Shown here in pieces: positions 1,235 through 58,579 of a stretch of 64,000 bases of DNA. Both the position numbers and the translations under genes were made by a program. Source of the stretch: an uncultured bacterium (GTDB lineage Bacteria; B130-G9). Location of the stretch: NCBI GenBank assembly GCA_965372715.1, contig CBDVDH010000003.1:34495-98494 (forward strand). The letters run 5' to 3'. The notes under the pieces are model-generated. The model was not told where the DNA came from. It did not search any database and was given only the letters and a program-made list of their open reading frames with translations. Positions within the stretch are counted from its first letter, which is position 1; every line of letters starts with the position of its first letter.

Positions 1235-2194
1235 ATGCGTAAGACCTGTCCAACACACAAAGGGACCGTATTATCGGTCAACATCTCGACCCAAAAAGGC
1301 ACGATAAAGACACCTGTCAAGAGTGCTAATGTCACCGAGCGGGGCATCGAGGGCGATGCGCACGCTGGTCAGTCTCATCGCCAGGTTAGCCTGCTGAGTC
1401 AGGAGAGCATCGACCGCTTCTCGACCCGGGTGGGGCGTGAGTTTGCGCCGGGTGAGTTCGCCGAGAACATCACCACACGGGGCATCGACCTATCACAAGT
1501 TGCGTTACTGGACCAGCTTGGCGTCGGCGAGACTCGTCTTGAGGTGACTCAGATCGGGAAAGCCTGCCACCCGGACGGGTGCGCCATCTTCAAGCAGGTT
1601 GGACAGTGTGTCATGCCCAAGGACGGCATCTTCTGCCGGGTGCTTCACGGTGGTAGGATCGAGCCCGGCGACACCATCAGATATTACCCACGTGGTCTAA
1701 CGTCTCGGGTTATCACTCTCAGTGACCGGGCGAGCCGGGGTGAATACGAGGACAAAAGCGGGCCTCTCGTCACCGTCATTCTAAATAGTTTTTTCGGGCC
1801 CAAACGTTGGCGCCTCGAAATCGAGGGTTACGTGCTTCCCGATGACCCGGACAAGCTTAGAGACCACCTTGAGCGGGCGCGCCAGGACAAGGTCGATGTG
1901 ATCATCACGACCGGCGGGACGGGGCTAGGCCCCCACGACATCACCCCGGACGTTGTTGCGCCTCTCTGCGACAAGCTCATCCCAGGAATCATGGAGCACA
2001 TTCGGCTCAGATACGGACAAGACAAGCCGAATGCACTCTTGAGCCGCTCCATCGCTGGCGTCATGGGGCAGACGCTCATCTACACGCTCCCAGGCAGCGT
2101 CCGCGCCGTCGAGGAATACATGACCGAGATACTCAAGACGCTGGAGCATCTAATCCTGACGGTCCACGGCATCGATCCACATACGCCCGACTAA
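1235..2194 (+). CDS. MOSC-domain / MoaB-MogA (molybdopterin-binding) fusion protein
   Basis: The N-terminal ~150 aa resemble a MOSC beta-barrel (GDAHAG...QVSLLSQES...GEFAENITTRGIDL...G.T.LEVTQIGKACH). The C-terminal ~150 aa carry a MogA/MoaB fold (DVIITTGGTGLGPHDITPDVVAPL...IPGI...SRSIAGVMGQTLIYTLPGSVRAVEEY). It lies in the moaA-moaC context. Confidence 0.7.
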   Translation: MRKTCPTHKGTVLSVNISTQKGTIKTPVKSANVTERGIEGDAHAGQSHRQVSLLSQESIDRFSTRVGREFAPGEFAENITTRGIDLSQVALLDQLGVGETRLEVTQIGKACHPDGCAIFKQVGQCVMPKDGIFCRVLHGGRIEPGDTIRYYPRGLTSRVITLSDRASRGEYEDKSGPLVTVILNSFFGPKRWRLEIEGYVLPDDPDKLRDHLERARQDKVDVIITTGGTGLGPHDITPDVVAPLCDKLIPGIMEHIRLRYGQDKPNALLSRSIAGVMGQTLIYTLPGSVRAVEEYMTEILKTLEHLILTVHGIDPHTPD

Positions 2195-2575
2195 GTCGGG
2201 AAGTCGGACAAGTTCAAAGTTCAAAGTCTCAAGTTGACGTTGCCCTTCATCGCCATTCGTGCTTATTCGTGTGCATTCGTGATTCCCCTCTTCCGCTAAG
2301 AACTGTCCCAAATTGGACAACTAGGGAAACAGCGTATTGCCATATACAGCGCACAACGTCGGTGAACAGTGGGCTAATGCGCTAGATTCACGGTCGTCCG
2401 GATTCAGGGCCGGCTTAGATTGAGGGCCCGTTCTCCGCCTCATCCGACGTCACAGCCATGACACACTGGTGTGGGGCGGGCTTTCAGCCTGCCAGAGTCC
2501 GGGTTTCCCGCGGCGAGCCCCGCCCGCTTGATGGAAACCACGAATGAACACAAATAACCACGAATCAACGGGGCG

Positions 2576-2728
2576 TGTAGGGGCGGCTCAGGGAGGCTGG
2601 GTCATAAGTCGTTGCGGTTATGTAGGGGCGTGGTCTCAGCCCCGCCCTTTCGAATTGATGGTCGCATAAGATGCCTCGTATCCGCAGGGATTCATGTACG
2701 CGGGCGGGTCTGAGACACCGCCCCTACA
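2576..2728. repeat. Composite GC-rich hairpin repeat (family A: GTAGGGGCG / CGCCCCTAC arms plus GGCTGGGTCATAAGTC motif)
   Basis: Two GTAGGGGCG...CGCCCCTAC-type stem-loops. Related copies at 48362-48535, 53576-53680, 56473-56510 and 58401-58439. A partial inverted copy lies at 2835-2875 (GACTTATGACCCAGCCTCCAGGAGCCGCCC). Confidence 0.65.
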
Positions 2729-3522
2729 GGCCGATTCCGACAATCGCGTCGCGAATGAAAACTGCCGCGTTGATCTTGACAATCGGCCGTATTCCCTGTA
2801 TCGTTGTTGTGTGAATAGACAACGAAATCCTCGTCAATTGACTTATGACCCAGCCTCCAGGAGCCGCCCTCCGCAGAATCATTAGGGATTGTGCACGCAA
2901 GAATAACAGTGTCGTAACCCCGGACTTATTGGACAGCCTCTGGAACCCGGGGGCTAATACAACCGTGACCTGATGCATCGCCACTGCTTGCGCCGGGCGA
3001 TGATTTGCCAACCGCCAACTGGCAACTGCTAACTGCTAACTGGTAACCGCCCGATAGACGGCTTCGACTCGCCGAAGGACAGGCGAACTACGGCGGACTA
3101 TGTGGACAAGAAGGGAAATTGGGGACGACCTATGCCCGCCAGAAAGGTTCAATGCGGTCCCTGACGAATCCTGAAACGGCTGATCGCAAGAGGTCCTTAG
3201 CGCACCGCCTCGTTCCAGTTTGTGCCCGCTGTGAACGCGGCTGTAAACACCTTGTCCAGCAGCGATTCAAGGACACGGGCATGCGGTCGAGGCAAAACGG
3301 CTTCGGAAACTTGATGGCCTTTAGATACGTCGCAAAGTCGCAACGCCTCGATACGCGCTGGAACCAATTCAAGGAAGCGGCGTGACAATTACCCACAATC
3401 TGGACACAGACCCAGGCCAAGGGGCCGGGGGCACTGTTTGACAATTGAGCTTACACAGCCGATAGTTGCTGCTCAAACATCAGCATAGTAATTGGCAAAC
3501 TCTGAAAGGATAGGGGGTCGAG

Positions 3523-5703
3523 ATGGAACTCTGGCCGGACAGCATCTTGTCACAGAACCTACGGCTTCGGCGATGGTTCTTGGTCGGGCTGGTTCTGCTG
3601 CCGCTCATCCTGACGTTTCCGGCAATTCGAGCATATTACCAGGGCCAGGCTTGGGCGGACTTCAGACCGCAGACGTGGGCTGAGATAGGGGGTTATGTAA
3701 CCGCTGACTACGAATACTGGGAGCCAGAGTTCTATAGGCCACTGGCCAGGATACTACCAGCGCTGGAATACAAGCTTTTCGGCACGAACCCGGTTGTACC
3801 CAGAGCAGTCTTTTTTGTGGCCTATTCTGCAACCTGTCTTCTAGTGTTTCTCATTGTAGAGGCGTTGTCTGGAAGCTTCCTTACAGCTGCGGCCGCTTCT
3901 CTGATCTTCACGGTTATGCCAAGTCACGTTCTTCCTGTCTTCAAGATGTCGCCGAATATCACGGCGGTTTGGATGTGTTTGGCATTATTGACGTTCTGGC
4001 TGTTGGGACCTGGCTATCACAGGAAGCCATCCTGGCGTAAGGTTGCGATTGCCTTCGCCTCATATTTAGCTGGGATACTCTCATATCCACACGTACTACT
4101 CATCCCCGTCTTACTACTCGCTTATGAGCTACTGTGGGGGGCGCAGGATGCTCGGAGTTCTGTGAAGAGAACCTTACTCAGGCTGCATCTGCCGCTGTGG
4201 CTGATCACTGGGATGTTTTTGGCTCTGAGGTGGCGCCTTTTGAGCCGGCTGAGCGGGGAGGCAGATTGGTACCTGAACGGGGTCAAAACACTTACGATCA
4301 CCAAAGCTGCCGAGACAATGATCTGCCTGGTCTATGGAGGTATTTTCCCACTTCAGCTATCGCCGGCGCTTATTACTGCTAGCCTGCTTTTGCTTTATTT
4401 CGGTTTCCGGTCAAACTGGCGTTTCTCGCTATTCTTGCTGATATGGATAGTGATCGCCCCCTCCTTCAGCTACGCACATGCCGAGTTGTTGTGGCAGCGG
4501 CTCTACCTCTTCACATTTGGGGCTGCGGCTTTTATCAGCTATGTTCTGGTTTTCTGCCTTGGTGGGCTTCTGGACTCGAAACGGCACTCGGAGCGGCTAT
4601 CCCGGATTCTCTCTGTCCTAGATTGGGCGATTGCGATACTGATTGGTTACTGGGTGTTCGAGTTGCTGAGGATGGGTTGGGCGGATATGTTCCTTGGAGA
4701 GAGTCTGAACGGGCGTCTGAGATTCGTGGCTGCCGCCATTGTGGCAATTGCTGTTGTCCTGCGGTCTATTGTCTCCAAGAACGTAACGCCAAGATTCTCC
4801 AAGCAGCCGCTCAGATTCATCTCGGTTGGCCTCGTTGCGGTCATAATTGGTGCTTACGGCGCTGGTTTCGTGAACCAGCTGGGAATGAACGTTGCCCTAT
4901 CAGACGAGATGGAAATGGTCCCCAAAGCAATTGTCAAGGTCCAGCCGCAGGTGCCGGACAACACGCTGATCTTAGTTGTGGTAGGCGATGAGCTCTTGAG
5001 TAAGCTGGGAAGCTCTCTCGGCCAGCTGGATGACTGCCTACGCAGCGAGTATGGCAAGAACGTGAGTTCGTATATCTTTAGCGATTGGGTGAGGATGGCT
5101 CAATACCGAAAGATACCCCAACAGACTACCGTTTTAGCTTTCAGGTTTGACGGTGAGCGAGCTGTCCGGGACCAAGAGCTTGCCGCTCGGATACTTGCCA
5201 GGCAGCGCTCCTATCTTGGGCTCTCCTCGGATGTAATACATGCCCAAGTTCGCGCTCTCCCGGCTGTGGCTGGCGATTTTCGCCTCACGCCCAACGTAGA
5301 TTCGATGTTAATCGACAAGGCAGAGCTACATATCGAGGCCCCAGTGGATGAGGTTGTAGCTCGGGTTGAGTTTGGGTCGGATGGGCTGCTGCTGGGTGTC
5401 ATGGAACTCCAGGCTCACGTGGAGGGGACAAAGGCTACAATCGCTCTGGATCGGCAGCATCAATGGCAGCTGGCTGGTGTCCTAGACTGGGTCAGCATCT
5501 CCGCAGTTCCGCGGGGTAAGCCCGTGACTATTCGCCAGGCCAGCCTGCTACAAACAAGAGGCCTGATTGTTGCTGTTCTACCGCAACATAAGCCGGTTGG
5601 GGCCGTCACATTCCTGCTCGGGAGCTCAACCCAACGCCCCTTTGAAAAGGTAACCACATTCCTTATGGCGGACGAGACTGAACGGTGCATCGCGATCCCA
5701 TGA
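3523..5703 (+). CDS. Polytopic membrane protein, possibly a GT-C-fold glycosyltransferase, with a ~330-aa C-terminal extracytoplasmic domain
   Basis: AGGGGG RBS before ATG 3523. About 11 predicted TM helices in the first ~400 aa. An acidic/aromatic loop (DYEYWEPEFYRP) follows TM1, as in GT-C enzymes (ArnT/PMT-like). It sits next to WecA-like and Glf-like genes. Function is inferred from topology and context only. Confidence 0.45.
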   Translation: MELWPDSILSQNLRLRRWFLVGLVLLPLILTFPAIRAYYQGQAWADFRPQTWAEIGGYVTADYEYWEPEFYRPLARILPALEYKLFGTNPVVPRAVFFVAYSATCLLVFLIVEALSGSFLTAAAASLIFTVMPSHVLPVFKMSPNITAVWMCLALLTFWLLGPGYHRKPSWRKVAIAFASYLAGILSYPHVLLIPVLLLAYELLWGAQDARSSVKRTLLRLHLPLWLITGMFLALRWRLLSRLSGEADWYLNGVKTLTITKAAETMICLVYGGIFPLQLSPALITASLLLLYFGFRSNWRFSLFLLIWIVIAPSFSYAHAELLWQRLYLFTFGAAAFISYVLVFCLGGLLDSKRHSERLSRILSVLDWAIAILIGYWVFELLRMGWADMFLGESLNGRLRFVAAAIVAIAVVLRSIVSKNVTPRFSKQPLRFISVGLVAVIIGAYGAGFVNQLGMNVALSDEMEMVPKAIVKVQPQVPDNTLILVVVGDELLSKLGSSLGQLDDCLRSEYGKNVSSYIFSDWVRMAQYRKIPQQTTVLAFRFDGERAVRDQELAARILARQRSYLGLSSDVIHAQVRALPAVAGDFRLTPNVDSMLIDKAELHIEAPVDEVVARVEFGSDGLLLGVMELQAHVEGTKATIALDRQHQWQLAGVLDWVSISAVPRGKPVTIRQASLLQTRGLIVAVLPQHKPVGAVTFLLGSSTQRPFEKVTTFLMADETERCIAIP

Positions 5704-5872
5704 TTCAGCACCGATTCTCACGAGCGTTATCACCGTCATGATTTGGCCAAGATTCATGTGGGTTTTTGTGGTAGTTCGAGGTTCGAATTGGATGGAGATT
5801 GTCTTGTCATTGAGCCAGGGGACGGCGACTGCCAACCGCCAACTGCCAACTTGCAGCCGCTCGATAAGACGG

Positions 5873-6994
5873 CTATTGCTTCAGAGCTTCGTGGGAATCG
5901 CTGTCAGTTGAGCCGCGAGCCACCTTCGCCGCCAGGGACGCAACGTGTTTCTCAAGGTATGCGAGCGTCTTCAGCGCTAGGACGAGGCCCATTGCCAGGA
6001 TAATCAGGATAAGGAAGGTGTATTTGAACGGGATAAGGACCGTGATGAAGGCGATGACGCCGAGATATGCGGAGATGAAATAGATCAGTTTGACCGCTTG
6101 GCGCTGCGACAGCCCGAGAGCGAGCAGCCTGTGGTGCAGATGCTCCCGGTCGCCCTCAAACGGGTGCGTTCCTCGAATGAGCCTCCTCAAGAAGGCGAGC
6201 ACAGTGTCCATCAGGGGGACCGCCATCGAGGCAATTGGGACCAAAAGGGCGACCGCGACTGTGCTTTTTGAGGCGCCGAGAAGCGACATTGCGGCGAATA
6301 TGAACCCGAGGCACATGCTTCCGGTGTCGCCCATGAAGATGCTTGCGGGAGAGAAATTGTACTTGAGGAACCCCAGGACGGCGCCGGCGACCGCGAGAGA
6401 CAGGAGGCCGATCTCGTAATCACCCCGATAGACCGCCACCGACATCATCGTGAGTGAGGCGATGAAGACGATGCCTGCTGCGAGTCCGTCGAGGCCATCT
6501 ATGAGGTTTATTGAGTTGGTTAGGCCCACGACCCAGAGCACGGTCAGCATCACGCCAACTATGGCCGGAACGGCAATTGAGCCGGTTTCCGAAAGCGGCG
6601 ACGTGAATTTCTCGATATTGAAGCCATAGACAAGGAGCACGATTGCCGCAGCTATCTGCCCCGCAAGCTTGACAGTTGGCCGCGCGCCCTTGGTGTCGTC
6701 GTAGATGCCCACTCCCATCAGGATGAGGCATCCGAGGAAGATACCGGTCAGCTTGCTGCCCAGCAATTCTCCCAGGTCAGGGTGCAGGGACGTGCCCAGA
6801 AGGACCGCGGCCACAAACGCGACGATAATCGCAATGCCGCCGAGCGATGGTATCGGATGGGGGTGAATCTTCCGACGACCCGGCACGTCCATAGCGCCGA
6901 CGCGCCTCGCAAACGCTCTGACGACCGGGGTGAGAATCAAAGAAACCACCGTGCCGGCTGTGATAACGATGACGTATGTAAGCGGCAGGCTCAT
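5873..6994 (-). CDS. Polyprenyl-phosphate N-acetylhexosamine-1-phosphate transferase (WecA/TagO/MraY family, GT4 superfamily)
   Basis: Multi-TM protein with the MraY/WecA motifs NSINLIDGLDGLA and DDxxG (GIYDDTKG) and a HHRLL-type cytoplasmic loop. Confidence 0.8.
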   Translation of the reverse strand: MSLPLTYVIVITAGTVVSLILTPVVRAFARRVGAMDVPGRRKIHPHPIPSLGGIAIIVAFVAAVLLGTSLHPDLGELLGSKLTGIFLGCLILMGVGIYDDTKGARPTVKLAGQIAAAIVLLVYGFNIEKFTSPLSETGSIAVPAIVGVMLTVLWVVGLTNSINLIDGLDGLAAGIVFIASLTMMSVAVYRGDYEIGLLSLAVAGAVLGFLKYNFSPASIFMGDTGSMCLGFIFAAMSLLGASKSTVAVALLVPIASMAVPLMDTVLAFLRRLIRGTHPFEGDREHLHHRLLALGLSQRQAVKLIYFISAYLGVIAFITVLIPFKYTFLILIILAMGLVLALKTLAYLEKHVASLAAKVARGSTDSDSHEALKQ

Positions 6995-7003
6995 TCAATA
7001 GTT

Positions 7004-7156
7004 CCAAGTTTCAAGTTTCAAGTTCAAGGTCGAAGGCCCAAAGTCAGTTGTCAGTTGGCCGTATTCATCCTTCATGCTTCATCCCTCTTCTGTGTCTCTG
7101 TGTCTCTGTGGTTCACTGCAATCCGCAATCGGCAATCCGCAATCGGCAATCCGCAG
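7004..7156. repeat. Cluster of short triple-tandem motifs in the wecA-like/glf-like intergenic region
   Basis: CAAGTTTCAAGTTTCAAGTTCAAGG (7004-7029). CTGTGTCTCTGTGTCTCTGTGG (7090-7111). GCAATCCGCAATCGGCAATCCGCAATCGGCAATCCGCAG (7118-7156). Confidence 0.7.
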
Positions 7157-7158
7157 TT

Positions 7159-8511
7159 TCATGACAGTTTCGTCCAGACTCTTTCTCTCTCATCCAGAAG
7201 GAGCCTGTCAATGGCCTCTTTGCCCTGCATGAAGGAGTGGTCGGTGTTGCCGACCTCGTATCGCCAGCCGCCAAATCTGCCCCGCGAGAGAATATCATGC
7301 GCCTCAAAGAACTCGAGCATCAGCTTTAGGTTCTTGTCTCGGTCCAGCGTCGGGACGGGGTAGGAGCGCTGGACCTTGATGACCTTCGTGCTTACAACCG
7401 CGTCGAAGTCCTCCGGCGAGATAAGTCCCGCTGCGACCAGGCCGTCCAGCGTGCTTTTCACCGCGTCGGCCGCGACCCTATCGACTTCGTTCGGCTGGCA
7501 AGAGACCTCGCAAACGAGCGAGTAATGGCCCGCCTCGGGCACGTTGTTGGGCGAGTAGTTGGAGAAATAGGTAACGCGGTAGAACGGGCAGTTGCTCTCC
7601 GGGAAATACATCCAGCACTTGTCGCTGGGGCACGGCTTTTCAAAGCCCAGGCCGATCATCACGCCAGCCGTAGTTCCAAGCCCGGAGGCCGCGTCACGCA
7701 CATCATCCGGCGCGCCTCGCGTGATTGAGGCCAGTTCGTCGAGCGGGATGCTGCTCAGAAGCGCGTCGTAGGTCGTTCGCTCGCCATTTTCAAACTGGAT
7801 GGTCTTGGCTCTAGGATCGAGGGAAACGATCCGGCGCCTCAGGTGGAGATGGTCCTCGATGTGACGTCGGTAGCCCTCAAACATCGCCCCAGTGCCGCCG
7901 TTGAGCGGGAACCTGAACTTGCTGTTGGGGCCCCAGCCGACGTCGTCCCGCTCGAGGATTACGTTGCTCAGCACCCTCTCAAAATCGATGACGCTGACTC
8001 GGTCGGCAATCCAATCCTTCGAAATCCTTTCGAGCGGGAACTTCCAGACCATGTCGTTATACGGAACCATAAAGTGCTTGGAGATGCCCTTCCCGAAGAC
8101 CGCGTCAATCCACTCTCGAAAGTTGCCAACGGGCCGTTCATTCCTCGACGCCTCCAGCAAGCCGACGAGGCATTCGAGAACCACGTCGCTTCTAAGATAG
8201 CGGATGTTATTCTGAAATGGATACGGGACCCATCTGCCGTGTATCCTCACGAAACTCCGCCGCTCGTGCGCGAGGTAATCGTCGCCCAGAACGCCGTCGA
8301 TATACCTATCGAAGTAGTCGTAGTGCGAAAACAAGACGTGGCCGCCGATGTCCCACACGAAGCCCTTATCATCCGAAAAGGACGCCGCAAGCCCACCGAC
8401 GTAGTCGTTCTGCTCGTATATGTCCCAGTCCTTGTAGCCCAATTCGTTCAGCCGATACGCAGCGCCAATGCCCGTCGGCCCCGCGCCCAGGATTACAATT
8501 CTCTTTTTCAA
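7159..8511 (-). CDS. FAD/NAD(P)-binding flavoenzyme, UDP-galactopyranose mutase (Glf)-like
   Basis: N-terminal Rossmann GxGxxG (ILGAGPTGIGAAY). The region IYEQNDYVGGLAAS...WDIGGHVLFSHYDYFDRYIDG parallels Glf (D.R.HIGGN...GPHIFHT). The C-terminal GGWRYEVGNTDHSF parallels Glf GRLGTYRYLDMD. At 450 aa it is longer than canonical Glf. Confidence 0.6.
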   Translation of the reverse strand: MKKRIVILGAGPTGIGAAYRLNELGYKDWDIYEQNDYVGGLAASFSDDKGFVWDIGGHVLFSHYDYFDRYIDGVLGDDYLAHERRSFVRIHGRWVPYPFQNNIRYLRSDVVLECLVGLLEASRNERPVGNFREWIDAVFGKGISKHFMVPYNDMVWKFPLERISKDWIADRVSVIDFERVLSNVILERDDVGWGPNSKFRFPLNGGTGAMFEGYRRHIEDHLHLRRRIVSLDPRAKTIQFENGERTTYDALLSSIPLDELASITRGAPDDVRDAASGLGTTAGVMIGLGFEKPCPSDKCWMYFPESNCPFYRVTYFSNYSPNNVPEAGHYSLVCEVSCQPNEVDRVAADAVKSTLDGLVAAGLISPEDFDAVVSTKVIKVQRSYPVPTLDRDKNLKLMLEFFEAHDILSRGRFGGWRYEVGNTDHSFMQGKEAIDRLLLDERERVWTKLS

Positions 8512-8714
8512 TCAGTATCGCCTTCTGTTGCTGCCAGGCAGCCGCCTGACCTGGGTTGTGCGGCAGGCCGCGGAAACAACTCGCGCATCCTGGCCATTAT
8601 CTTAATCTTCTCGGCAAAAGGCAGCTGCCGAAGCCGCGCTCTCACCTTCTCTTTTTCCTCATTGAGCACTTGAAAGAACTGTTCTGAGTCTGTGATGTAA
8701 AGGAGTTTTTTCAT
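8508..8714 (-). CDS. Small hypothetical protein (68 aa), translationally coupled to the downstream Glf-like gene
   Basis: The ORF stop overlaps the Glf-like start (ATGA overlap at 8508-8511). No recognisable domain. Confidence 0.25.
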   Translation of the reverse strand: MKKLLYITDSEQFFQVLNEEKEKVRARLRQLPFAEKIKIMARMRELFPRPAAQPRSGGCLAATEGDTD

Positions 8715-8763
8715 CTAGATTCCTCCGCTCGATGCGAGATGCGAGTCTGTGGCCAGCCACCTT

Positions 8764-9138
8764 CTAATCATCCCCTGTCGGGCAGACCGTAGTCGCCTCT
8801 ACCATCAGAACCACGGTGCGCTCCGGAGCACGTGTCCGATGAACCACGCCTTTAGGGACTACCGTTGCCTGGCACGGCAACAACTCCATCGTCCTGTCCT
8901 CCAAATCAACCAGTAAACGGCCCTTGACAACGTAAAAGAGCTCATCCTCCCTCTCGTGCCGATGCCAGTGGAACTCTCCCTTTAGCACGCCGAGGCGCAC
9001 CACACACTCGTTGACTTGACAGAGCGTCTGATTGAACCAATCGTGCCTGCAGGTGCGCTCCAGCTCGGCCACATCAACTCGCTCCAAGGGCCCGAACTTG
9101 ACGTCGCCTCTGATCAGGTATTCCGTTTTCCTCTCCAC
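8764..9138 (-). CDS. Cupin-domain protein
   Basis: Two-histidine cupin motifs (GEFHWHRHEREDELFYVVKG ... PKGVVHRT), typical of the small RmlC-like cupin fold. Confidence 0.6.
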   Translation of the reverse strand: MERKTEYLIRGDVKFGPLERVDVAELERTCRHDWFNQTLCQVNECVVRLGVLKGEFHWHRHEREDELFYVVKGRLLVDLEDRTMELLPCQATVVPKGVVHRTRAPERTVVLMVEATTVCPTGDD

Positions 9139-9149
9139 TTTGCCTCGCC

Positions 9150-9386
9150 TTACTTGCCTATGAGCCGCAGGTCCGCCACGACCGGCAGCTCAAAGAGGTC
9201 CGTCCGCAGGAGTCGAGTGGAGAAGAATAGCACCTCGAGGTTCTCGACCTCGCCAGTATGGGGGTTGAGACGCGCTATTACTTCGTCCTTCAGCTCCTCC
9301 GACTCCTGCTCCGCGTAGGGAGGGCACTTGTCTATGTGGAGGATGTCGGCCCCCCGATCATACTTGAACCTCAGTGTCTTCTCCAT
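9150..9386 (-). CDS. DUF2283-like small protein (putative antitoxin partner)
   Basis: 78 aa. A DILHI/ILYI-type motif (ADILHIDK) is typical of DUF2283. It lies immediately downstream of a DUF4258-like ORF, and the two are commonly paired. Confidence 0.45.
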   Translation of the reverse strand: MEKTLRFKYDRGADILHIDKCPPYAEQESEELKDEVIARLNPHTGEVENLEVLFFSTRLLRTDLFELPVVADLRLIGK

Positions 9387-12866: not shown

Positions 12867-12875
12867 GGGTTCTCT

Positions 12876-13691
12876 GTGTCTCAGTGTCTCTGTGGTGAGA
12901 GGATAGACGTCGTGAAGGAGAACGAACCGGAGCGGAGTGCGAGGAGGCCGGCTGTTACGTTGATGTATTCGGGCGGGTTGGATTCGACGGTCACGGCACT
13001 GACGCTTGCCGGGCAATACGACAAGGTTCATTTGCTCACTTACGCCCGGGGTTATGGTCACTGGTTCGTGGGCCGGTCAAGGGTGCGCGTCCCGGAGCTC
13101 GAAAAGCACCTCGAAAGGAGCGTTTTCACTCAGTTTAGAGCCAGCGTGAAGGGACTCTTCAAGAAGATCGTCCTCGATAGCTTCGTCGCGGATTTCAGGA
13201 AGTACAAAGCGTTGTTTATTGTCTGCGTGGGCTGCAAGATGGCGATGCACGCCCGTTCGGTGATCTACAACCTCGAACACGGAATCCCATGCGTGTCTGA
13301 TGGGTCCGCCGAGACGACGGCCTGGATGCCGGACCAGATGCCGGTCACGCTGGCCGAATACAAACGGCTTCACGAGGACTACGGGCTGACCTACTCGAAT
13401 CCTGTCTATCACTTCGGCACCCGGGAGAAGGCGCGTGAGACGCTTCGCGCGGCGGGCCTCTCGATGGGGCGCCGCATCGCGGACCGGGACTTCGGGACGC
13501 AGCCTGTCTGCCTCTTCGGCGACGTAATCACGATATTCCGCGAGTTCATGAAGGTCGGCCTCCCGCTGAAGGAGGAGAGCATCGTGGATTTCATGCGTGA
13601 GAAGCGGCCAATCCTCGACGACTACATCAAGGATTACTTTGTCCAGAACGGCCTTGATTTATACGAGCTGAAGGAGCGGGTGGCCCAGTGA
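12876..13691 (+). CDS. PP-loop ATP-pyrophosphatase superfamily protein with conserved CxxC...C; paralog 2
   Basis: LMYSGGLDSTVTALTL, VHLLTYARGYGH, FIVCVGCKMAMH, GTQPVCLFGD. Collinear with paralogs 1 and 3. Confidence 0.65.
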   Translation: MSQCLCGERIDVVKENEPERSARRPAVTLMYSGGLDSTVTALTLAGQYDKVHLLTYARGYGHWFVGRSRVRVPELEKHLERSVFTQFRASVKGLFKKIVLDSFVADFRKYKALFIVCVGCKMAMHARSVIYNLEHGIPCVSDGSAETTAWMPDQMPVTLAEYKRLHEDYGLTYSNPVYHFGTREKARETLRAAGLSMGRRIADRDFGTQPVCLFGDVITIFREFMKVGLPLKEESIVDFMREKRPILDDYIKDYFVQNGLDLYELKERVAQ

Positions 13692-13984: not shown

Positions 13985-15454
13985 CTATCCCCCCTTCATC
14001 TGCCCCTTCAATAGCTCAAGGTTCTCCCGGACAAGTCTCGTCTTCGGATGATCGTCGCCCAGGAACTTCCTGAATATTGCAATCGCCCGCTCATAGCACT
14101 CCTTCGCGCCGTTCAGATCGCCAAGGGCCTTAAGCACCAAGCCAAGATTATTCACGCAAGTAGCAACTGTCGGATGGTCCAGGCCATAGGAATCCTCAGC
14201 TATAGAACGACCCCGCTCACAAGACTTCTTAGCGCTATTCAGATTGCCAAGGGCCTGAAGCACTATGCCAAGATTGCTGACCCGAATGGCAACGTTCGGA
14301 TGGCCCGGGCCAAAAGCCTTCTCGTCGATAGCAAGCGCTCGCTCAATACACTTCTTCGCGCCATTCAGATTACCAAGGGCCTGAAGCACTATGCCAAGAT
14401 TGCTGACCCGAATCGCAACGTTCGGATGGTCCGAGCCAAAAGCCTTCTCGTCGATAGCAAGCGCTCGCTCAATAGACTTCTTCGCGCCATTCAGATCGCC
14501 AAGGGCCTGAAGCACTATGCCAAGATTGTTCAGGTGAGTCGCAACTTCAGGATGATCAGGGCCAAAAGCCTTCTCGTCGATAGCAAGCGCTCGCTCATAA
14601 CGCTCCTTCGCGCCGTTGAGATCGCCAAGGTCGCGAAGCACCGAGCCAAGATTGTTCACGTCCCTCGCAACATCGGGGTGGTCCGGGCCATAAGAAGCCT
14701 CGTCTATCTTAAGTGCTCGCTCAAAACGCTCCTTCGCGCCGTTGAGATCGGCAAGGTCTTGAAGCACCATGCCAAGATTGTTCACGTAAGCTGCAACTGT
14801 CGGATGGTCCGGGCCATAGCAAGCCTCGTGTACGGCAAGCGCCCGCTCATAACACTCCTTCGCGCCCTTCAGGTCACCAAGGTTCTGAAGTACCGAGCCG
14901 AGATTGTTCACGTCAGTCCCAACTCGAGCATGATCGGGGCCAAGAGCCTTCTCGTCGATGGCAATCGCTCGCTCAAAAGACTCCTTCGCCCCTTTCAGGT
15001 CACCAAGGTCCTGAAGTACCGTGCCGAGATTGTTCACAATCGTCGCAACCTCGGGATGATCTGGGCTATAGACCGCCTCATAGATCGCAAGCGCCCGCTC
15101 GTAACAGTCCTTGGCCTGTGAGAAGTCAGCGCGGCCTCCCAGATACAGGCCAGCCTGATTGAGCAGGCGCCTGAGAGCATTCGAAGCCAGGCCAATCGCT
15201 TCCGCGTGGCCGGCCGCGGCGAGCGCATGCGCTATCAGCCGGGAGCATTCGGACCAGGTCGTAACGTCATGACTGTCGTCCGGAAAGGCGTCGTTCAGTA
15301 GCTCGACTGCCGCCTCGACCAAATCAGTTTTGTTCTGACCTGACAGCCTGTCTCGCGCGACAGCCTGAAGCAATCGGTGCAGGCTGGCGTGGTTTCCTTC
15401 CCGGTCGATCAACGAGTAGCGCTTCAGGTTCTGGACGGCCTTGTCGAATCGCAT
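13985..15454 (-). CDS. TPR-repeat segment (C-terminal part of an interrupted TIR-NB-ARC-TPR STAND protein)
   Basis: About 10 tandem 42-aa TPR_10/12-like units (NNLG.VLQ.LGDL.GAKE..ERALAIDEKA.GPDHP.VA). It is in the same frame as the upstream NB-ARC ORF. The sequence just after the in-frame TAG (LKRYSLIDREGNHASLHRLLQAVARDRL) is the winged-helix motif normally contiguous with NB-ARC. Confidence 0.8.
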   Translation of the reverse strand: MRFDKAVQNLKRYSLIDREGNHASLHRLLQAVARDRLSGQNKTDLVEAAVELLNDAFPDDSHDVTTWSECSRLIAHALAAAGHAEAIGLASNALRRLLNQAGLYLGGRADFSQAKDCYERALAIYEAVYSPDHPEVATIVNNLGTVLQDLGDLKGAKESFERAIAIDEKALGPDHARVGTDVNNLGSVLQNLGDLKGAKECYERALAVHEACYGPDHPTVAAYVNNLGMVLQDLADLNGAKERFERALKIDEASYGPDHPDVARDVNNLGSVLRDLGDLNGAKERYERALAIDEKAFGPDHPEVATHLNNLGIVLQALGDLNGAKKSIERALAIDEKAFGSDHPNVAIRVSNLGIVLQALGNLNGAKKCIERALAIDEKAFGPGHPNVAIRVSNLGIVLQALGNLNSAKKSCERGRSIAEDSYGLDHPTVATCVNNLGLVLKALGDLNGAKECYERAIAIFRKFLGDDHPKTRLVRENLELLKGQMKGG

Positions 15455-15502
15455 TCTGTCTTTGGCCGCGGCGGCAAGCGAACGCGGCAGAAAGCGCGCG
15501 CC

Positions 15503-16903
15503 CTAGCGGATCACGTCCAGCGGGATTCTGTCCGGCGCGAAGAAGGCGAAGAGATTCATCAATTCTGCCGCAACGGGGCGTTCCTCTTTGAACTTCTCTG
15601 ATGTGATCTCCCAGGTGGTTGCGACGGATTTCTCGTACGGGTCCAAGTTAGAGCATCGCTCCAGAAGCTCCTTCTGCCGCTTTCGAAAGAGATCGAGGTA
15701 GTCTGAGGCGGAGCAACCCGTCTCCTCCAGGTAGGCCGCCGCCTGTTCCAGCGCGAGCGGAAAGTCGCCGAGCTCCCTCGAAAGCTCGCGGAAACCCGCA
15801 TCGTCCTCTCTGCCCGTTCGTTTGCCAATGAACTCGACGGATTTGTCAGGCTCAAACTCCTTCACCTTGATCGGCTGCGCGATGCCCCTGAAGCTCGGAT
15901 TCCGAGAGGTCGCGATCACGTGGCCTTTGCCGCCCTCTGGAATCAAGTCGGCAATGTCGCTTGGCTCACAGACGTTGTCGAAGACGAGAAGCCAACCTCG
16001 CCGCCGCCCGAGCTCCCTTCTCACCGCCTCAATGGCTTCGGGCTGGTTCATGGGATCGATGCCCGGCAGCTTAAGCTCCGCGCCCAGTGAGGCATAGTCG
16101 TCCCGCAGCGTTGGGGCAAGCTCGGACCTCATCCACCAGACGATCTCGTAGTCGGCGCAGTGCCGATACACGTATTCGAGCGCAATCTGCGTCTTCCCGA
16201 TGCCGCCCAGGCCGTGCATCGCCTGTGATATGACGCCGACCTTGCCAGAACTCAATGCACTCTCCAACCTGGCAAGATGCTCCTCGCGGCCCGTGAAGTT
16301 GCGGTTCCTCGAATGCGGCACGTTCCAGACCGGGGGCAATGCACCGGGGAAACGCCGACCTGGAGGCTCTTTAGCCACATCCTCGGCAATGCCCGGAAAT
16401 TCGGGCCTGGTGGTCGCTTCGCTCGGGCCCATGAGATCGGCAAGCAGTTTTGCTCTGGCTTGGTCTTCATTCAGGGCCGCCAGATTGATGTACTTCCTGC
16501 CCGAGAGAATCCCGAGCGGCGTGTCCTTATCAATCAAGACCGGGACAAATCGTGAAGGCTGACCTTCTTCATTTGTGTAGAGAGCGGACGATATCTCGTC
16601 CCAAACAGCACGAGATGCTAACGAACGAGGGGAGAGCAGAACCATGACGCGCTCCGCCTCGAGCGAGGCGTCATACATGTGCTTGTGGATGTTCTCTCCG
16701 GTCCCGAAGTCCCTTTTGTCTCGAATATAAGTGTAATTCACGCCGTCCAACTGCCAGCAGATCCAATCGGCCCACTGCGAATCGCCATGAGAGTAGCTTA
16801 TGAAAAAGTCCTTCATCTCAAATCCAATTGTGGTGCGAACGGGCGTAATAACCGACAAGAGGAAAGAATGAGCTATTCGAGGCCCGAAATCAATGAATAT
16901 CAA
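15503..16903 (-). CDS. TIR domain + NB-ARC (STAND) ATPase segment; the ORF terminates at an in-frame TAG 16 codons before the TPR ORF
   Basis: TIR signature FFISYSHGDSQWADWICWQLD. P-loop GLGGIGKTQIALEY, Walker B LLVFDNV and a GHVIATSRN (RNBS-like) motif. The stop TAG at 15503-15505 is in frame with the 13985..15454 ORF. Confidence 0.75.
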   Translation of the reverse strand: MIFIDFGPRIAHSFLLSVITPVRTTIGFEMKDFFISYSHGDSQWADWICWQLDGVNYTYIRDKRDFGTGENIHKHMYDASLEAERVMVLLSPRSLASRAVWDEISSALYTNEEGQPSRFVPVLIDKDTPLGILSGRKYINLAALNEDQARAKLLADLMGPSEATTRPEFPGIAEDVAKEPPGRRFPGALPPVWNVPHSRNRNFTGREEHLARLESALSSGKVGVISQAMHGLGGIGKTQIALEYVYRHCADYEIVWWMRSELAPTLRDDYASLGAELKLPGIDPMNQPEAIEAVRRELGRRRGWLLVFDNVCEPSDIADLIPEGGKGHVIATSRNPSFRGIAQPIKVKEFEPDKSVEFIGKRTGREDDAGFRELSRELGDFPLALEQAAAYLEETGCSASDYLDLFRKRQKELLERCSNLDPYEKSVATTWEITSEKFKEERPVAAELMNLFAFFAPDRIPLDVIR

Positions 16904-22430: not shown

Positions 22431-23372
22431 ATGAGAGCTGTCGTAACGGGTGTCGCAGGCTTTATCGGCTCGCATTTGGCCGAGCGCCTCATCAACGACG
22501 GGCACGATGTGGTTGGGGTAGACTCATTCACGCCCTACTACTCAGCCAGTATAAAGGAGAGCAATCTAGCAATCCTGAACGCTAGCTCACGGTTCAGGCT
22601 CATAAAGAGCGATCTGTTGGCCATCGACCTCGACACGCTGCTCTCGGACGTTGACCTCGTATTTCACCTGGCGGCCCAAGCGGGCGTCAGAGCCAGCTGG
22701 GGCCACCATTTCAAGGACTATACGAGGTTCAACGTCGAGGCCACACAAGAGCTGCTGGAAGCCGCAAAGGACAAGGGTCTGAGCAGATTCGTTTGCGCCT
22801 CGTCCTCGTCCGTGTATGGCGAGGTCGAGCAGCTCCCCGTCACAGAGGAACACCCGCTCAAGCCGATCTCGCCGTATGGGGTAACCAAGCTCGCGGCCGA
22901 GCACCTCTGCGGCATATACGCCAAAAACTTCGGCGTTCCGGTCGTCAGCCTGCGCTTCTTCACCGTCTATGGGCCGCGCCAGAGGCCTGATATGGCCATT
23001 CACAAGTTCATTGCGGCGGCGCTCAAGGGCCAGCCGGTTGAAGTATTCGGCGACGGCTCGCAGACCAGGGACTTCACGTTCGTGCTCGACGTTGTTGAGG
23101 CGTGTATGCTCGCCGCGACCGGTGACGCCAAGATGATTCCCTATAACATCGGCGGCGGCTCCCGGATAACCGTGAACGACCTGGTTCATCTTCTCGAAAA
23201 GATCCTGGACACATCAATCGAGGTAACGAACGTCGGCAAGCAGCGAGGCGACGTCATGCACACCCACTCCGATTGCAGCATGGCGAAGTCAGACTTCGGC
23301 TACTCGCCGAAACACACGCTCGAGGAAGGGCTCTTCGAGGAGGCCGCCTGGTTCCGCAAGGAGTTCCCCTGA
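22431..23372 (+). CDS. NAD-dependent epimerase/dehydratase (extended SDR; UDP-sugar 4-epimerase / UDP-glucuronate decarboxylase-like)
   Basis: GxxGxxG (VTGVAGFIGSHL). The catalytic S...YxxxK (SSSSVYG...YGVTKLAAE) is typical of the GalE/UXS family. Confidence 0.85.
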   Translation: MRAVVTGVAGFIGSHLAERLINDGHDVVGVDSFTPYYSASIKESNLAILNASSRFRLIKSDLLAIDLDTLLSDVDLVFHLAAQAGVRASWGHHFKDYTRFNVEATQELLEAAKDKGLSRFVCASSSSVYGEVEQLPVTEEHPLKPISPYGVTKLAAEHLCGIYAKNFGVPVVSLRFFTVYGPRQRPDMAIHKFIAAALKGQPVEVFGDGSQTRDFTFVLDVVEACMLAATGDAKMIPYNIGGGSRITVNDLVHLLEKILDTSIEVTNVGKQRGDVMHTHSDCSMAKSDFGYSPKHTLEEGLFEEAAWFRKEFP

Positions 23373-23490
23373 CCGAGAGCCTCGGCTCCCGGCGAAGATA
23401 CCCGGCTGGGCCTGCGCTTCACCGCGACCGGCGAGTTCGACATCGTGGCCGATTGATCGGAGGAATGCACACCACAGAGACACAGACGTA

Positions 23491-23573
23491 ATGTAGGGGC
23501 AGGCCCCCGCGCCTGCCCCTACGGCATGCGACCAAACGTGTATCAAGGGCGCAGCAAGCGGCGCCCCTACGGA
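23491..23573. repeat. GTAGGGGC...GCCCCTAC hairpin repeats (family A), two units
   Basis: Perfect palindrome GTAGGGGCAGGCCCCCGCGCCTGCCCCTAC (23493-23522). Then AAGGGCGCAGCAAGCGGCGCCCCTAC (23546-23571), which resembles the AAGGGCGGGGCAAGCACCGCCCCTACA units at 48560 and 48887. Confidence 0.6.
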
Positions 23574-23733
23574 TGACGATGGGCAGAGGCCTCGGTGTGA
23601 AGTATCGCCTTCTACGGGCTTGAATAACCGCGACCAGTGCGGCAGCCTTTCTGAGAAGTGGGCACGAGGTTGCGCCCGGGGGCGACTAATTCGGCAGCTG
23701 TCCTGTCTGTCTTTTGTTGAGACGTTGCTTTGA

Positions 23734-26370: not shown

Positions 26371-26670
26371 TTGTCCAAGGATCATAAGCATGGTTCTGTT
26401 GCTTTGCAGCGCAAGCATAGACTGCCGCCCGTTTCGGAAGACGAGAGCATCAAAGCTTATAAAAGGGAGCTACCTCGGTTGCTCCTGGAGCACGAATCCG
26501 AGTTCGTTGCGTTTGCTGAAGGCGAATTGATCGGCACACATGCCGATCGTGACGAGCTCCGGAAGCTTGCCCACGATTTACATCCCGGTGAGTCTATACT
26601 AGTGACGAGAATTCAAAGGACGCCGCGGCGCCGCAGACTCTTGTCTCCCAAGGGAAGATTCAGCGGATAG
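26371..26670 (+). CDS. Small hypothetical protein (99 aa), 5' partner of the aspartyl protease ORF
   Basis: No recognisable motif. The ORF ends 10 nt before the next ORF. It is paired in one transcription unit. Confidence 0.4.
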   Translation: MSKDHKHGSVALQRKHRLPPVSEDESIKAYKRELPRLLLEHESEFVAFAEGELIGTHADRDELRKLAHDLHPGESILVTRIQRTPRRRRLLSPKGRFSG

Positions 26671-26679
26671 AGGCTAACG

Positions 26680-27057
26680 ATGCGTGCCCATTACCATCAG
26701 AATCTGGATCCGCCTGCGCCTGTCGTTGAAGTTTCCTTCGAGAATCCACTCACAAGAGAGGTCTCTTCGGTATATTGTCTTCTGGATACGGGAGCGTATG
26801 CCTGTCATCTGCCAGGTTCGGTCATCAATTCCATTGGCCAAACTGATTACGAGCCTTGCGAAATCGAGGTTGTTGGCGGTGGCATAATCGGCACACGCTC
26901 CCACTTCCTAAGCGTGACGTTCTGTGGAAAAGATATGGGAGAACTTGAGGTTGTTGAGCTGCCCGAAGGAGATGACCAACCTCTTCTCGGTCGAGACGTG
27001 CTCAACCAGTTCGTCGTAACACTGAACGGCCCGGAACTCACCTGCGAGATCACGTGA
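26680..27057 (+). CDS. Retropepsin-like (clan AA) aspartyl protease domain protein
   Basis: Catalytic D-T-G inside a hydrophobic context (VYCLLDTGAYACHLP) plus a downstream GRDVLNQF motif. The ~125-aa size fits single-domain retropepsin-like proteases that dimerise. Confidence 0.55.
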   Translation: MRAHYHQNLDPPAPVVEVSFENPLTREVSSVYCLLDTGAYACHLPGSVINSIGQTDYEPCEIEVVGGGIIGTRSHFLSVTFCGKDMGELEVVELPEGDDQPLLGRDVLNQFVVTLNGPELTCEIT

Positions 27058-48259: not shown

Positions 48260-48361
48260 GGCTCTCAAACCACAATTCGGTTGAGGGCTTGTCTCCGACC
48301 ATACCGACACCAACATCTTGTGTTGGAAATCGGGCACAGGAAGGCTGTTTAATAATTCGCT

Positions 48362-48535
48362 GTGGGCCGGTAGGGGCGCGGTCTCTGACCCGCCCGCCTA
48401 CATGAATCCCTGCGGATACGAGGCATCTTATCCCGAATAATTCAAGGCCGTGACTCTCGTCGGTGTAGGGCAGGCTTTCCGAGGCTGGGTCATAAGTCGG
48501 TGTCGGGCATCGTAGGGGCACTGCTTGCCGTGCCC
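48362..48535. repeat. Composite GC-rich hairpin repeat (family A), homologous to 2576-2728
   Basis: 48369-48430 is ~90% identical to the reverse complement of 2664-2728. 48462-48535 resembles 2576-2650 (GTAGGGCAGGCTTTCCGAGGCTGGGTCATAAGTCG...). Confidence 0.65.
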
Positions 48536-48559
48536 TTCTCTGATCTGACTGAACCCATC

Positions 48560-48586
48560 AAGGGCGGGGCAAGCACCGCCCCTACA
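48560..48586. repeat. AAGGGCGGGGCAAGCACCGCCCCTACA hairpin unit (family A)
   Basis: Identical 27-mer recurs at 48887-48913. Related unit at 23546-23571. Confidence 0.7.
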
Positions 48587-48886
48587 GACATCACTGCCCG
48601 TTGGGAGCCAAACTCCAGGCGTTTCGATCCAATAGAACACGGCCACATTGATCTTGACAATTGGCAGCATTTCTTGTATCATCTTTGTGCAAGTGAACGA
48701 AAGAACCTCCACGCGCCGACTTATGGGACAGCCTCTTCCAGCCTGCCAAAGACAGAGGCTCGCGCAACAGAGTGTTTCATGTGAGGGATACGGAGATCGC
48801 TGCAAAAGGCAGGCTGGAAAGCCCGCCCCACATCTCATCGCATCCTCAGTTTGTGAATAATACGGGTTATGCGACCATCAATTCGA

Positions 48887-48913
48887 AAGGGCGGGGCAAG
48901 CACCGCCCCTACA
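48887..48913. repeat. AAGGGCGGGGCAAGCACCGCCCCTACA hairpin unit (family A), second identical copy
   Basis: Exact 27-nt repeat of 48560-48586. Confidence 0.7.
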
Positions 48914-48986
48914 CGGCGTTTACGCACGTCACACCACAATTGGTCAGCACCTCAAAAAGAGGCAGTTATCCGTGAGTGGCATGCGC

Positions 48987-51113: not shown

Positions 51114-51211
51114 CCACAGAGACACAGAGACACAGAGAAAGAGTCGCTAGCGCGGTGCCAGTCCGACTTGTCGTCCACTCAGTCAATCTGCGTAATCTGC
51201 GTAATCTGCGG
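51114..51211. repeat. Short triple-tandem motifs between the two ABC exporter genes
   Basis: CCACAGAGACACAGAGACACAGAGAAAGAG (51114-51143) and AATCTGCGTAATCTGCGTAATCTGCGG (51185-51211). The second motif also occurs at 1187-1213. The first also occurs at 7090-7111 (reverse complement), 12869-12894 (reverse complement) and 23470-23488. Confidence 0.7.
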
Positions 51212-53575: not shown

Positions 53576-53680
53576 TGTGTAGGGGCGATTCACAAAGCGT
53601 CAGCGCGACGGAATGTCAAGTCGCCCCTTATGTGTTCGATACGATGAGGCTAGGGCGGCTCGTGAGCCGCCCCTACATGC
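53576..53680. repeat. GTAGGGGCG-type hairpin repeats (family A), two units
   Basis: TGTGTAGGGGCGATT...AAGTCGCCCCTTATGTG is an inverted pair. CTAGGGCGGCTCGTGAGCCGCCCCTACATGC follows. Confidence 0.6.
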
Positions 53681-58400: not shown

Positions 58401-58439
58401 TGCGGGCGGGCCTGAGACCGCGCCCCTACATGAATTCCC
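58401..58439. repeat. Family A repeat unit TGCGGGCGGGCCTGAGACCGCGCCCCTACATGAATTCCC
   Basis: See the 56473-56510 copy. It lies upstream of the Ser/Thr kinase gene. Confidence 0.65.
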
Positions 58440-58579
58440 TTTTTCCTTTTCTCCCATTGTCCTTTTGTCCCGTTTCCCCAATGGGGGAACTCCTATCCAC
58501 CTACAGCTTGCGAGCACAGAGCAGATACACTATCTTGATATGAGGTCAATTAACAGACGGTAAGGAGTGAGGAACGCCT

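Follow-up and report, generated by a model that had tools for sequence, protein, structure and literature searches.

GTAG-tagged REP elements, short tandem arrays, and a candidate REP-targeting MITE in a long gene-free gap of an uncultured bacterium

The gap, its REP hairpins, and its tandem arrays

We analyzed a 1,328-nucleotide (nt) gene-free gap at positions 2195 to 3522 of a 64-kb stretch of DNA from an uncultured bacterium (contig CBDVDH010000003.1; the whole stretch is here called the window). The gap holds repetitive extragenic palindrome (REP) elements, short tandem arrays, and a 265-bp noncoding element that we call MITE-1, for miniature inverted-repeat transposable element. It is delimited by the stop codon of a MOSC+MoCF fusion gene at 2194, the last member of a molybdenum-cofactor (Moco) gene cluster, and by the start codon at 3523 of a gene for a 726-amino-acid (726-aa) membrane protein without Pfam domains. 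The first-pass annotation, made from the letters alone, had reported a long noncoding gap between the Moco genes and the next coding sequence (CDS), with no convincing open reading frame (ORF), and both statements hold. On a rough gene map, the gap is the longest intergenic stretch of the window, the runners-up measuring ~0.6 to 0.7 kb and intergenic DNA amounting to ~11% of the window, and the gene calls of the source contig, a 159-kb metagenome scaffold (ENA ERZ23499000, ZORZ22-1_SAMN30647029 scaffold_14), leave 2195-3522 empty as well. No ORF in the gap is longer than 104 aa, and Pfam returned no match for any of the 13 gap ORFs tested (0/13). ARAGORN detected neither tRNA nor tmRNA in the gap, the Rfam 15 covariance models gave no match at the gathering score across the whole window, and at E ≤ 10 over 2100-3620 they returned two noise-level matches and nothing else. 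No terminator-like site was found in the gap, whose GC content and GC skew are unremarkable. The gap was also considered as a replication origin with iterons, which was rejected because there is no GC-skew inflection at 2 to 3.5 kb and the repeat units, at 7 to 10 nt, are too short.

The hairpins of the gap that carry GTAGGGGCG are GTAG-tagged REP elements. Such elements are palindromes of 20 to 40 nt with an unpaired GTAG at one end, are extragenic and often form inverted pairs, and have been recorded in Proteobacteria, Cyanobacteria, Chloroflexi, and the Planctomycetes-Verrucomicrobia-Chlamydiae (PVC) superphylum (PMC3733652). In the window, GTAGGGGCG has 12 exact copies where chance alone predicts 0.25; three of them are in the gap (at 2577 and 2622 on the + strand and at 2719 on the − strand). 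The most frequent 10-mer is CGCCCCTACA. Members of the family have (T)GTAG followed by GGGC and a variable GC-rich stem-loop that ends in GCCC, as in GTAGGGGCGTGGTCTCAGCCCCGCCC and GTAGGGGCGGTGCTTGCCCCGCCC. The 64 kb contain 13 hairpin-bearing units; all 13 have the GTAG head, (T)GTAGGGGC, and all 13 are intergenic, many of them as inverted doublets (2621-2728, 23493-23522, 48512-48585, and 53579-53676). Three more 8-mer matches lie inside genes without a hairpin and look like chance. Intact and reconstructed units have fold energies of −10 to −19 kcal/mol, and REPs of the GTAG type are present in related contigs too. At least four stem-loops had been placed within 2576-2728; we instead count four REP units in the gap, namely, one intact at 2468-2493, one split into 2575-2588 and 2862-2874, and an inverted pair at 2621-2647 and 2702-2728. 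An inverted partial copy noted at 2835-2875 is likewise present and corresponds to the second half of the REP that is split by MITE-1.

Longer inverted repeats join 2581-2610 with 2840-2869 (30 nt, 93% complementary), 2621-2647 with 2702-2728 (27 nt, 89%), and 2255-2290 with 2530-2565 (36 nt, 83%; here called I1). The arms of I1 may be the terminal inverted repeats (TIRs) of another MITE, of which no further copy was found among the loci compared. The three tandem motifs described by the first-pass annotation were all found by Tandem Repeats Finder (TRF) (Table 1), and related arrays recur at other places. An array with the unit AGTTTCA, resembling AAGTTCA, occupies 7000-7028; CATTYGTG arrays similar to that in I1 adjoin REPs at 58362-58389 and at the fetched locus L028 (fetched loci are cited by L numbers); and the TGCCAAC/TGCTAAC motif is found again at 5828-5851, where the sister genome described below has one 7-nt unit fewer. 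Arrays of 6- to 10-nt units with at least 2.5 copies number 16 in the window and 2.8 in shuffled sequence by TRF, and 14 of the 16 are intergenic. Some spacers are almost wholly built of arrays, such as 6995-7158, in which five follow one another; arrays of 7- to 10-nt units also make up much of the spacers at 1187-1212, 5828-5851, 12871-12894, 51115-51210, and 58362-58470, and several abut REPs. Individual motifs are shared between spacers, with CAATCTGCGTAATCTGCGTAATCTGCGGA at 1187 and 51185 and TCTCTGTGTCTCTGTGTCTCTGTGGT at 7089, 12871, and 51115. The sister genome is enriched in tandem arrays too, while a relative at 83% protein identity is not, and the orientation of the arrays with respect to transcription is inconsistent. 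We regard the arrays as a lineage-specific, slippage-prone part of the intergenic repeat mosaic. A cyanobacterial origin of the heptamer repeats, of the kind known as short tandemly repeated repetitive (STRR) sequences, was rejected: there is only one HIP1 site, and protein matches point elsewhere.

Table 1. Positions of the features of the gap and of two related features at 48 kb (window coordinates)
Feature	Position	Strand	Basis or detail
AAGTTCA array, ×3.1, period 7	2210-2232		TRF; begins 16 nt past the MOSC/MoCF stop
CATTCGTGnn array, ×2.8, period 10	2254-2281		TRF; left arm of the 36-nt inverted repeat I1
Intact, unoccupied REP of the MITE-target subfamily, GGTGTGGGGCGGGCT-TTC-AGCCTGCC	2468-2493	+	Sequence; 8-bp stem, −14.5 kcal/mol
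Inverted copy of the CATTCGTG array, right arm of I1	2530-2565		Inverted-repeat scan
Left half of host REP, GTAG head and stem, GTGTAGGGGCGGCT	2575-2588	+	Pairs with 2862-2869
Target site duplication CAGG, left copy	2589-2592		End tabulation; former loop of the host REP
MITE-1, 265 bp, noncoding	2593-2857	+	Alignment of seven full copies; discrete ends, unrelated flanks; JGI copies 80-91% identical
Left TIR, GAGGCTGGGTCATAAGTC	2593-2610	+	End tabulation
Internal REP doublet (REPIN-like)	2621-2728		Inverted repeat; GTAG-REP 2621-2647, 54-nt conserved spacer, inverted GTAG-REP 2702-2728
Sigma-70-like site, TTGACA-17 nt-TATCGT	2776-2804	+	Promoter scan; faces out of the MITE right end, toward the 726-aa gene
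Right TIR, reverse complement of GAGGCTGGGTCATAAGTC	2840-2857	−	End tabulation
Target site duplication CAGG, right copy	2858-2861		End tabulation
Right half of host REP, AGCCGCCCTCCGC	2862-2874	+	Reconstructed empty site
Solo degenerate MITE-1 TIR, 14/18 match	2923-2940	−	Repeat comparison; lies between CCCCGG and CCGGGG
TGCCAAC/TGCTAAC array, ×5-6, period 7	3006-3047		TRF
Left limit of sister homology (synteny breakpoint)	3120-3144		Alignment; collinear rightward only
Upstream region native to the 726-aa gene and shared with the sister	3144-3522	+	Alignment
Second MITE-1 copy	48463-48747	+	Host REP halves 48463-48476 and 48740-48747; target site duplication TTCC 48477-48480 and 48736-48739; MITE 48481-48735
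Second intact target-type REP	48806-48832		Fold

MITE-1 and its REP-loop sites

MITE-1 has discrete ends; seven full copies can be aligned over their entire length, and their flanks are unrelated. Its TIRs match at 18 of 18 positions, and the TIR is common to all copies. Both ends are bordered by CAGG as a target site duplication (TSD), outside which lie the two halves of a host REP; the rebuilt empty site, GTGTAGGGGCGGCT-CAGG-AGCCGCCC, has a 9-bp stem and a 4-nt loop and folds at −18.8 kcal/mol. ORFs that overlap MITE-1 are at most 95 aa long, have no Pfam match, and are not conserved between copies. The REP doublet in its interior, with arms of 27 nt, has partial copies outside any MITE at 48365-48455, 48867-48913, and 58393-58431. 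The first-pass annotation had offered a decayed mobile element as one explanation of the gap, and the mobile part of that proposal stands, given the 265-bp MITE, a solo-TIR remnant, and the REPs, but decay does not, the TIRs being complete and the TSD perfect.

Copies of MITE-1 are found both in the window and beyond it. A second noncoding island at 48260-48986 has modules in common with the gap and contains a MITE-1 copy that is ~63% identical overall to the first. We searched for further copies by scanning Joint Genome Institute (JGI) metagenome contigs for exact matches to an 18-mer that the two window copies share, which yielded 14 loci; most of these have the ~265-bp MITE-1 sequence at 80 to 91% identity (full-length matches) between unrelated flanks, and full or partial copies beyond the window are present at no fewer than 10 metagenome-contig loci. 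The repeats of the gap thus have copies elsewhere in the window and in other contigs and are not unique to the window. The copies have a common architecture, consisting of a REP half-stem, four nucleotides (N4), GAGGCTGGGTCATAAGTC, ~230 bp, GACTTATGACCCAGCCTC, N4, and the other REP half-stem. Every full copy occupies a REP loop, and both orientations occur: the host REP has its GTAG head on the side of the left TIR (TIR-L) in four copies (both window copies, L011, and L014) and on the side of the right TIR (TIR-R) in four others (L003, L006, L012, and L013). The N4 flanks are direct, not inverted, repeats that vary between copies and agree within a copy, and three of the six scorable pairs are perfect TSDs: CAGG/CAGG (window copy 1), TTCC/TTCC (window copy 2), and ACCG/ACCG (L014). 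The outer half-stems also differ between copies (GGGCGGCT, GGCAGGCT, GGGCAGGC, and GGCGGGCT) and remain complementary within a copy through compensatory changes (pairs 13/339, 14/338, and 18/334). When MITE-1 and one N4 are removed in silico, the flanks form hairpins with an 8- to 9-bp stem, a 4- to 6-nt loop, and a fold energy of −10 to −19 kcal/mol, equal in form to the two REPs that are intact in the window (2468-2493 and 48806-48832). In L004, an unrelated contig, a related mini-element (6502-6654; TIR GAGGCTGTGCCAAAAGTC) is situated in a hairpin loop as well, with the TSD CAGA/CAGA. The simplest reading of these structures is that MITE-1, with its 18-bp TIRs and 4-bp TSD, is a MITE that inserts specifically into REP loops. 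At L003, a 685-aa ORF without Pfam matches (7173-9230, − strand) traverses the MITE-1 copy at 7305-7600, by chance ORF extension or as an in-gene insertion.

In the mechanism that we propose for the gap, the host REP GTGTAGGGGCGGCT-CAGG-AGCCGCCC would have been struck in its 4-nt loop by the 265-bp MITE, a staggered cut would have duplicated the loop CAGG, and the REP half-stems lengthen the 18-bp TIRs into an inverted repeat of ~30 nt. A DDE-type transposase encoded elsewhere may recognize extruded REP hairpins and mobilize MITE-1. IS110-type transposition uses a fixed core, and the Y1 enzymes of the IS200/IS605 type create no target duplications; both mechanisms are excluded for MITE-1 because its 4-bp TSDs are variable. 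The likeliest mobilizer would be a DDE enzyme. The ends begin with GAG, which under ISfinder conventions is more like the IS5 family and may serve as a lead. The MITE-1 promoter may fire, and the REP and MITE hairpins, when carried on read-through RNA from the Moco operon, would act as 3′-end stabilizers. Enterobacterial REPs are established 3′-end stabilizers of RNA.

Candidates for a parent element of MITE-1 were examined near TIRs in the fetched loci. A parent insertion sequence (IS) next to the solo TIRs in L004 and L009 was rejected, the neighbors being ordinary metabolic genes. At L017, an IS110-family transposase gene lies ~50 nt from a MITE-type TIR, and this candidate was rejected because nine copies of the IS show ends of their own, TTGTATGTTCCC...CACAGTCACTAC. 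The copies are always located in the REP head, in the order GCCC-CT, IS, CT-AC. By its ends, the L017 element is a separate REP-targeting IS of the IS621/ISPpu9 kind that by chance landed in a REP inside a MITE, and its insertion point suggests a CT core like that of IS621. This IS (DEDD_Tnp_IS110 and Transposase_20 domains, 314 to 318 aa) was seen at L017 15425-16569, at L020, and at L022-L030, and not in the window. The fetched loci also contain a second MITE family that is not in the window, ~300 to 400 bp long with the TIR CT[AG]ACAATTGTACGCATATT, which occupies the GTCTCAGACC loop of REPs with a TSD of ~9 bp (L012 6337-6737; L013 540-839; L017 2141-2440 and 9001) and is nested within the inner REP of MITE-1 in L012 and L017.

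A variable junction and its alternative explanations

The right part of the gap was compared with a sister genome (CAYZPW010000014.1), in which the CDS is 94.3% identical and the shared region has ~93 to 94% nucleotide identity. Left of the breakpoint (Table 1), the sister carries a gene for a 557-aa secreted protein that is not present in the window. Right of it, 3144-3522 is 91.1% identical to the sister with 10 gap columns, and a promoter-like site found by promoter scan at 3438-3466 (TTGACA-17-GATAGT) is conserved in both genomes. On this comparison, 3144-3522 is ordinary, neutrally evolving upstream DNA of the 726-aa gene. A conserved regulatory RNA in 3144-3437 was rejected, as the divergence there (8.9% plus indels) is at the level of the third codon positions of the CDS (8.1%). 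Two more distant relatives have gaps of ~260 nt after the MOSC gene, followed by the gene for ThyX in one and for a prepilin peptidase in the other, and each of the related contigs examined has a different gene following the Moco operon. Because sister homology ends at ~3120-3144 and the downstream genes differ, 2195 to ~3140 constitutes a lineage-specific variable junction. These two observations also lend indirect support, by association, to an earlier suggestion that the gap is a recombination hotspot. The sister contig (44.6 kb), if collinear with the window, would presumably end near the second island, by extrapolation.

Taken together, the gap is very likely a variable junction with REPs, a REP-targeting MITE, and tandem arrays that runs into the upstream region of the next gene, and not one functional unit. 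Several observations weigh against this interpretation. Three of the six scorable TSD pairs have one mismatch (CCCC/CCCA in L011 and TTCC/TTCT in L006 and L003), the L013 copy has a degenerate right end that leaves its TSD unscorable, and a short variant in L002 (888-1053) has nonmatching flanks (CATG/TCGG) and unrelated flanking REP stems. No transposase-bearing element with the MITE-1 TIRs was found in the window, in the 31 fetched loci, in IMG/VR (TIR query), or in PLSDB (MITE query). A scan of ~35 of the ~55 window ORFs with Pfam gave no match to Y1_Tnp, the domain of the REP-associated tyrosine transposases (RAYTs); RAYTs are usually single-copy genes. MOSC homologues, whose downstream neighbor differs in every relative, yielded no orthologous pair of empty and filled sites, and we therefore infer the mobility of MITE-1 from structure only. 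About 450 nt of the gap (2290-2467 and 2875-3120, listed repeats excepted) match nothing anywhere and are unexplained filler. Finally, the conservation of a promoter-like site within MITE-1, described below, hints at a function beyond selfish spread.

Among the alternatives, the whole region, MITE included, could be a mosaic of REPs and bacterial interspersed mosaic elements (BIMEs) spread by a RAYT, the outer arms being a long-spacer REPIN (a REP doublet forming a hairpin). All units are GTAG-tagged, REP half-stems form part of the outer arms, the window has many doublets with mosaic spacers, and the REP doublet inside the MITE is one that a RAYT could recognize. We nevertheless consider this explanation very unlikely, because the constant 18-bp TIR is flanked by variable 4-bp direct duplications, which Y1 enzymes do not make, the host REP stems vary between copies while the interior is constant, and both orientations relative to the GTAG head occur; the lack of a RAYT gene among the scanned ORFs counts against it as well. 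It is highly improbable that 2575-2875 is instead an invertible promoter switch, in which a site-specific recombinase would flip the ~230-bp segment and turn transcription of the 726-aa gene on and off. Inverted repeats of 18 to 30 nt do surround a conserved promoter-like site, both orientations are seen between flanking REP units that closely resemble one another (as at window copy 2 and L006), and a weak, subthreshold resolvase-like fragment is encoded at 26371-26670, 23.5 kb away. However, the opposite orientations come from different, nonorthologous loci rather than from one locus, the copy-specific 4-bp direct duplications mark transposition and not an inversion site, there is no adjacent recombinase gene, and roughly half of the copies have the promoter directed at the 3′ end of a convergent gene.

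The first-pass annotation had also raised a structured noncoding RNA, which here would belong to a long-hairpin family with several genomic copies. The segment 2570-2880 folds at −160.7 kcal/mol (z = −10.5), compensatory changes affect 15 of 93 consensus pairs, and several copies are conserved. The pairing, however, coincides exactly with DNA palindromes, so that the strong fold stems from the inverted repeats of the REPs and TIRs, and the compensatory changes are mostly in REP stems. No Rfam family matched beyond the noise level, a terminator-like site was not found, and the sole promoter-like site lies in the interior, past the 5′ arm, and could not drive transcription of both arms; the copies, moreover, have TSDs and are randomly oriented with respect to neighboring genes. 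An RNA of this kind is, on these grounds, extremely unlikely. A remnant of a decayed protein-coding gene has a gene-like length and ORFs of 88 to 104 aa at 3119-3444 in its favor, and we assign it a minimal probability. None of the gap ORFs had a Pfam match, no gene was found in the gap by homology, and repeats make up more than half of 2195-3140. The region of the 104-aa ORF (3130-3444), most of it in the shared part, differs from the sister by 1-nt indels with no reading frame favored, and in a 216-nt indel-free block ~17 substitutions alter 9 to 14 codons, whichever frame is used; with single-nucleotide indels and amino acid changes in every frame, this ORF is not a gene, and its divergence is at the synonymous level.

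The variable-junction interpretation accommodates the promoter-like site of MITE-1 as part of a mobile element. The −35 and −10 hexamers, with never more than one change in either, and their 17-nt spacing are kept in nine of nine copies. Between the divergent window copies, the site is the best-conserved block of the interior, its −35 block being identical at 15 of 15 positions. The site faces the 5′ end of a codirectional gene at window copy 1, L011, and L014 and the 3′ end of a convergent gene at window copy 2, L006, and L012, a mixed orientation that suits a mobile element rather than a dedicated regulator. It is possible but doubtful that MITE-1 is a REP-loop-seeking mobile promoter cassette whose sigma-70-type promoter is under selection and that REPs in this candidate-phylum lineage serve as a common landing platform for three or more mobile elements unrelated to one another, which would be MITE-1, the second REP-loop MITE, and the GTAG-head-specific IS110 element of related contigs. 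If so, each insertion would turn a REP hairpin into an outward transcription start, which would drive the downstream gene (the 726-aa membrane protein gene here and the downstream genes at L011 and L014) or give rise to RNA antisense to a convergent gene (at window copy 2, L006, and L012).

Other parts of the window also differ from the sister or contain repeats. At 23371-23632, upstream of a gene for an 814-aa Clp-type AAA+ ATPase (ClpC/ClpB-like), there are ~260 nt of extra intergenic DNA with a short tandem repeat and two REPs, one of which is a perfect palindrome (GTAGGGGCAGGC...GCCTGCCCCTAC); these are not in the sister at the orthologous site, where the gap measures 118 nt. Downstream of the ATPase gene, the window (26371-27057) encodes a 99-aa, subthreshold resolvase-like fragment and a retropepsin-like (gag-asp_proteas) ORF, and the sister (L031 12503-17237) has Sigma70_r4/TerB_C, BrxC/BrxD-like, and DEAD-helicase genes, so that this region looks like a variable, defense-island-like locus. 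A gene with TIR_2 and NB-ARC domains (STAND/NLR-like; 15503-16903, − strand) adjoins a 489-aa ORF at 13985-15454, in which a 126-nt unit is repeated in tandem ~8 times (14079-15112) and for which no Pfam match is on record; together (13985-16903, − strand), they could be a defense or signaling pair. A further repeat, at 53894-54626, comprises 2.5 units of 291 nt with 89% identity and lies in a gene on the − strand (53759-55945) that encodes a subtilase with PKD domains.

Related systems, host, and significance

The component classes of the gap are already known: GTAG REPs and REPINs, MITEs, and REP-targeted insertion. Like the GTAG-tagged REPs, REPINs, and BIMEs described elsewhere (PMC3733652; PMC3116915), the elements here have an unpaired GTAG head followed by a GC-rich imperfect palindrome of 20 to 40 nt, and they are extragenic and multicopy, form frequent inverted doublets with conserved linkers, and cluster in mosaic arrays; the difference is the host, which is probably a candidate-phylum bacterium and not a proteobacterium. 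ISPsy8 targets the symmetry axis of REPs, and the resulting order is REP fragment, direct repeat, IS, direct repeat, REP fragment (PMC1525189). MITE-1 resembles it and the other REP-targeting ISs of the IS3 (IS1397 and ISKpn1) and IS110 (IS621, ISPpu9, ISPpu10, and ISPa11) families in entering at the REP axis or loop, in this order of parts, and in its high target selectivity (PMC1525189). In contrast to these, it is a 265-bp noncoding MITE and not an IS, its TSD is 4 bp long rather than 3 bp (ISPsy8) or 2 bp (ISPpu9 and ISPpu10), and its ends start with GAG, unlike the TG...CA ends of the IS3 type. The Correia elements, or Neisseria miniature insertion sequences (NEMIS), are also of ~100 to 300 bp, intergenic, and multicopy, with TIRs of ~20 to 26 bp, form a long hairpin when cotranscribed, and have promoter-like hexamers able to read into neighbors, but they duplicate TA, do not target REP loops, and have no sequence similarity to MITE-1, in which a REP doublet is nested. 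With invertons such as fimS and the Bacteroides capsule promoters, MITE-1 shares a promoter between short inverted repeats and several similar copies per genome; it differs in having TSDs, in having no adjacent invertase, and in that no single locus gives evidence of two orientations.

The best named matches of the 814-aa ATPase and the MOSC protein are to "Candidatus Coatesbacteria" or to an unclassified "bacterium," and the ATPase has a small group of relatives at 77 to 95% identity, with all other matches at ≤59%. On the basis of these two named matches, the host probably belongs to a candidate phylum about which little is known. The MITE family, its strict REP-loop target with a 4-bp TSD, the nested REP doublet and promoter-like site, and the host lineage appear to be undescribed in the sources searched.

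For the annotation of this lineage, the REPs, the MITE, and the tandem arrays can be masked, which avoids spurious calls of small ORFs and RNAs, and the repeat islands may be a reason for assembly breaks in this organism. MITE-1 would offer a clean natural case of a nonautonomous element with strict hairpin-loop target choice, which is relevant to tools for site-specific insertion. These findings extend the range of GTAG-type REPs, and of transposition targeted to REPs, to a lineage that is probably an uncultivated candidate phylum.

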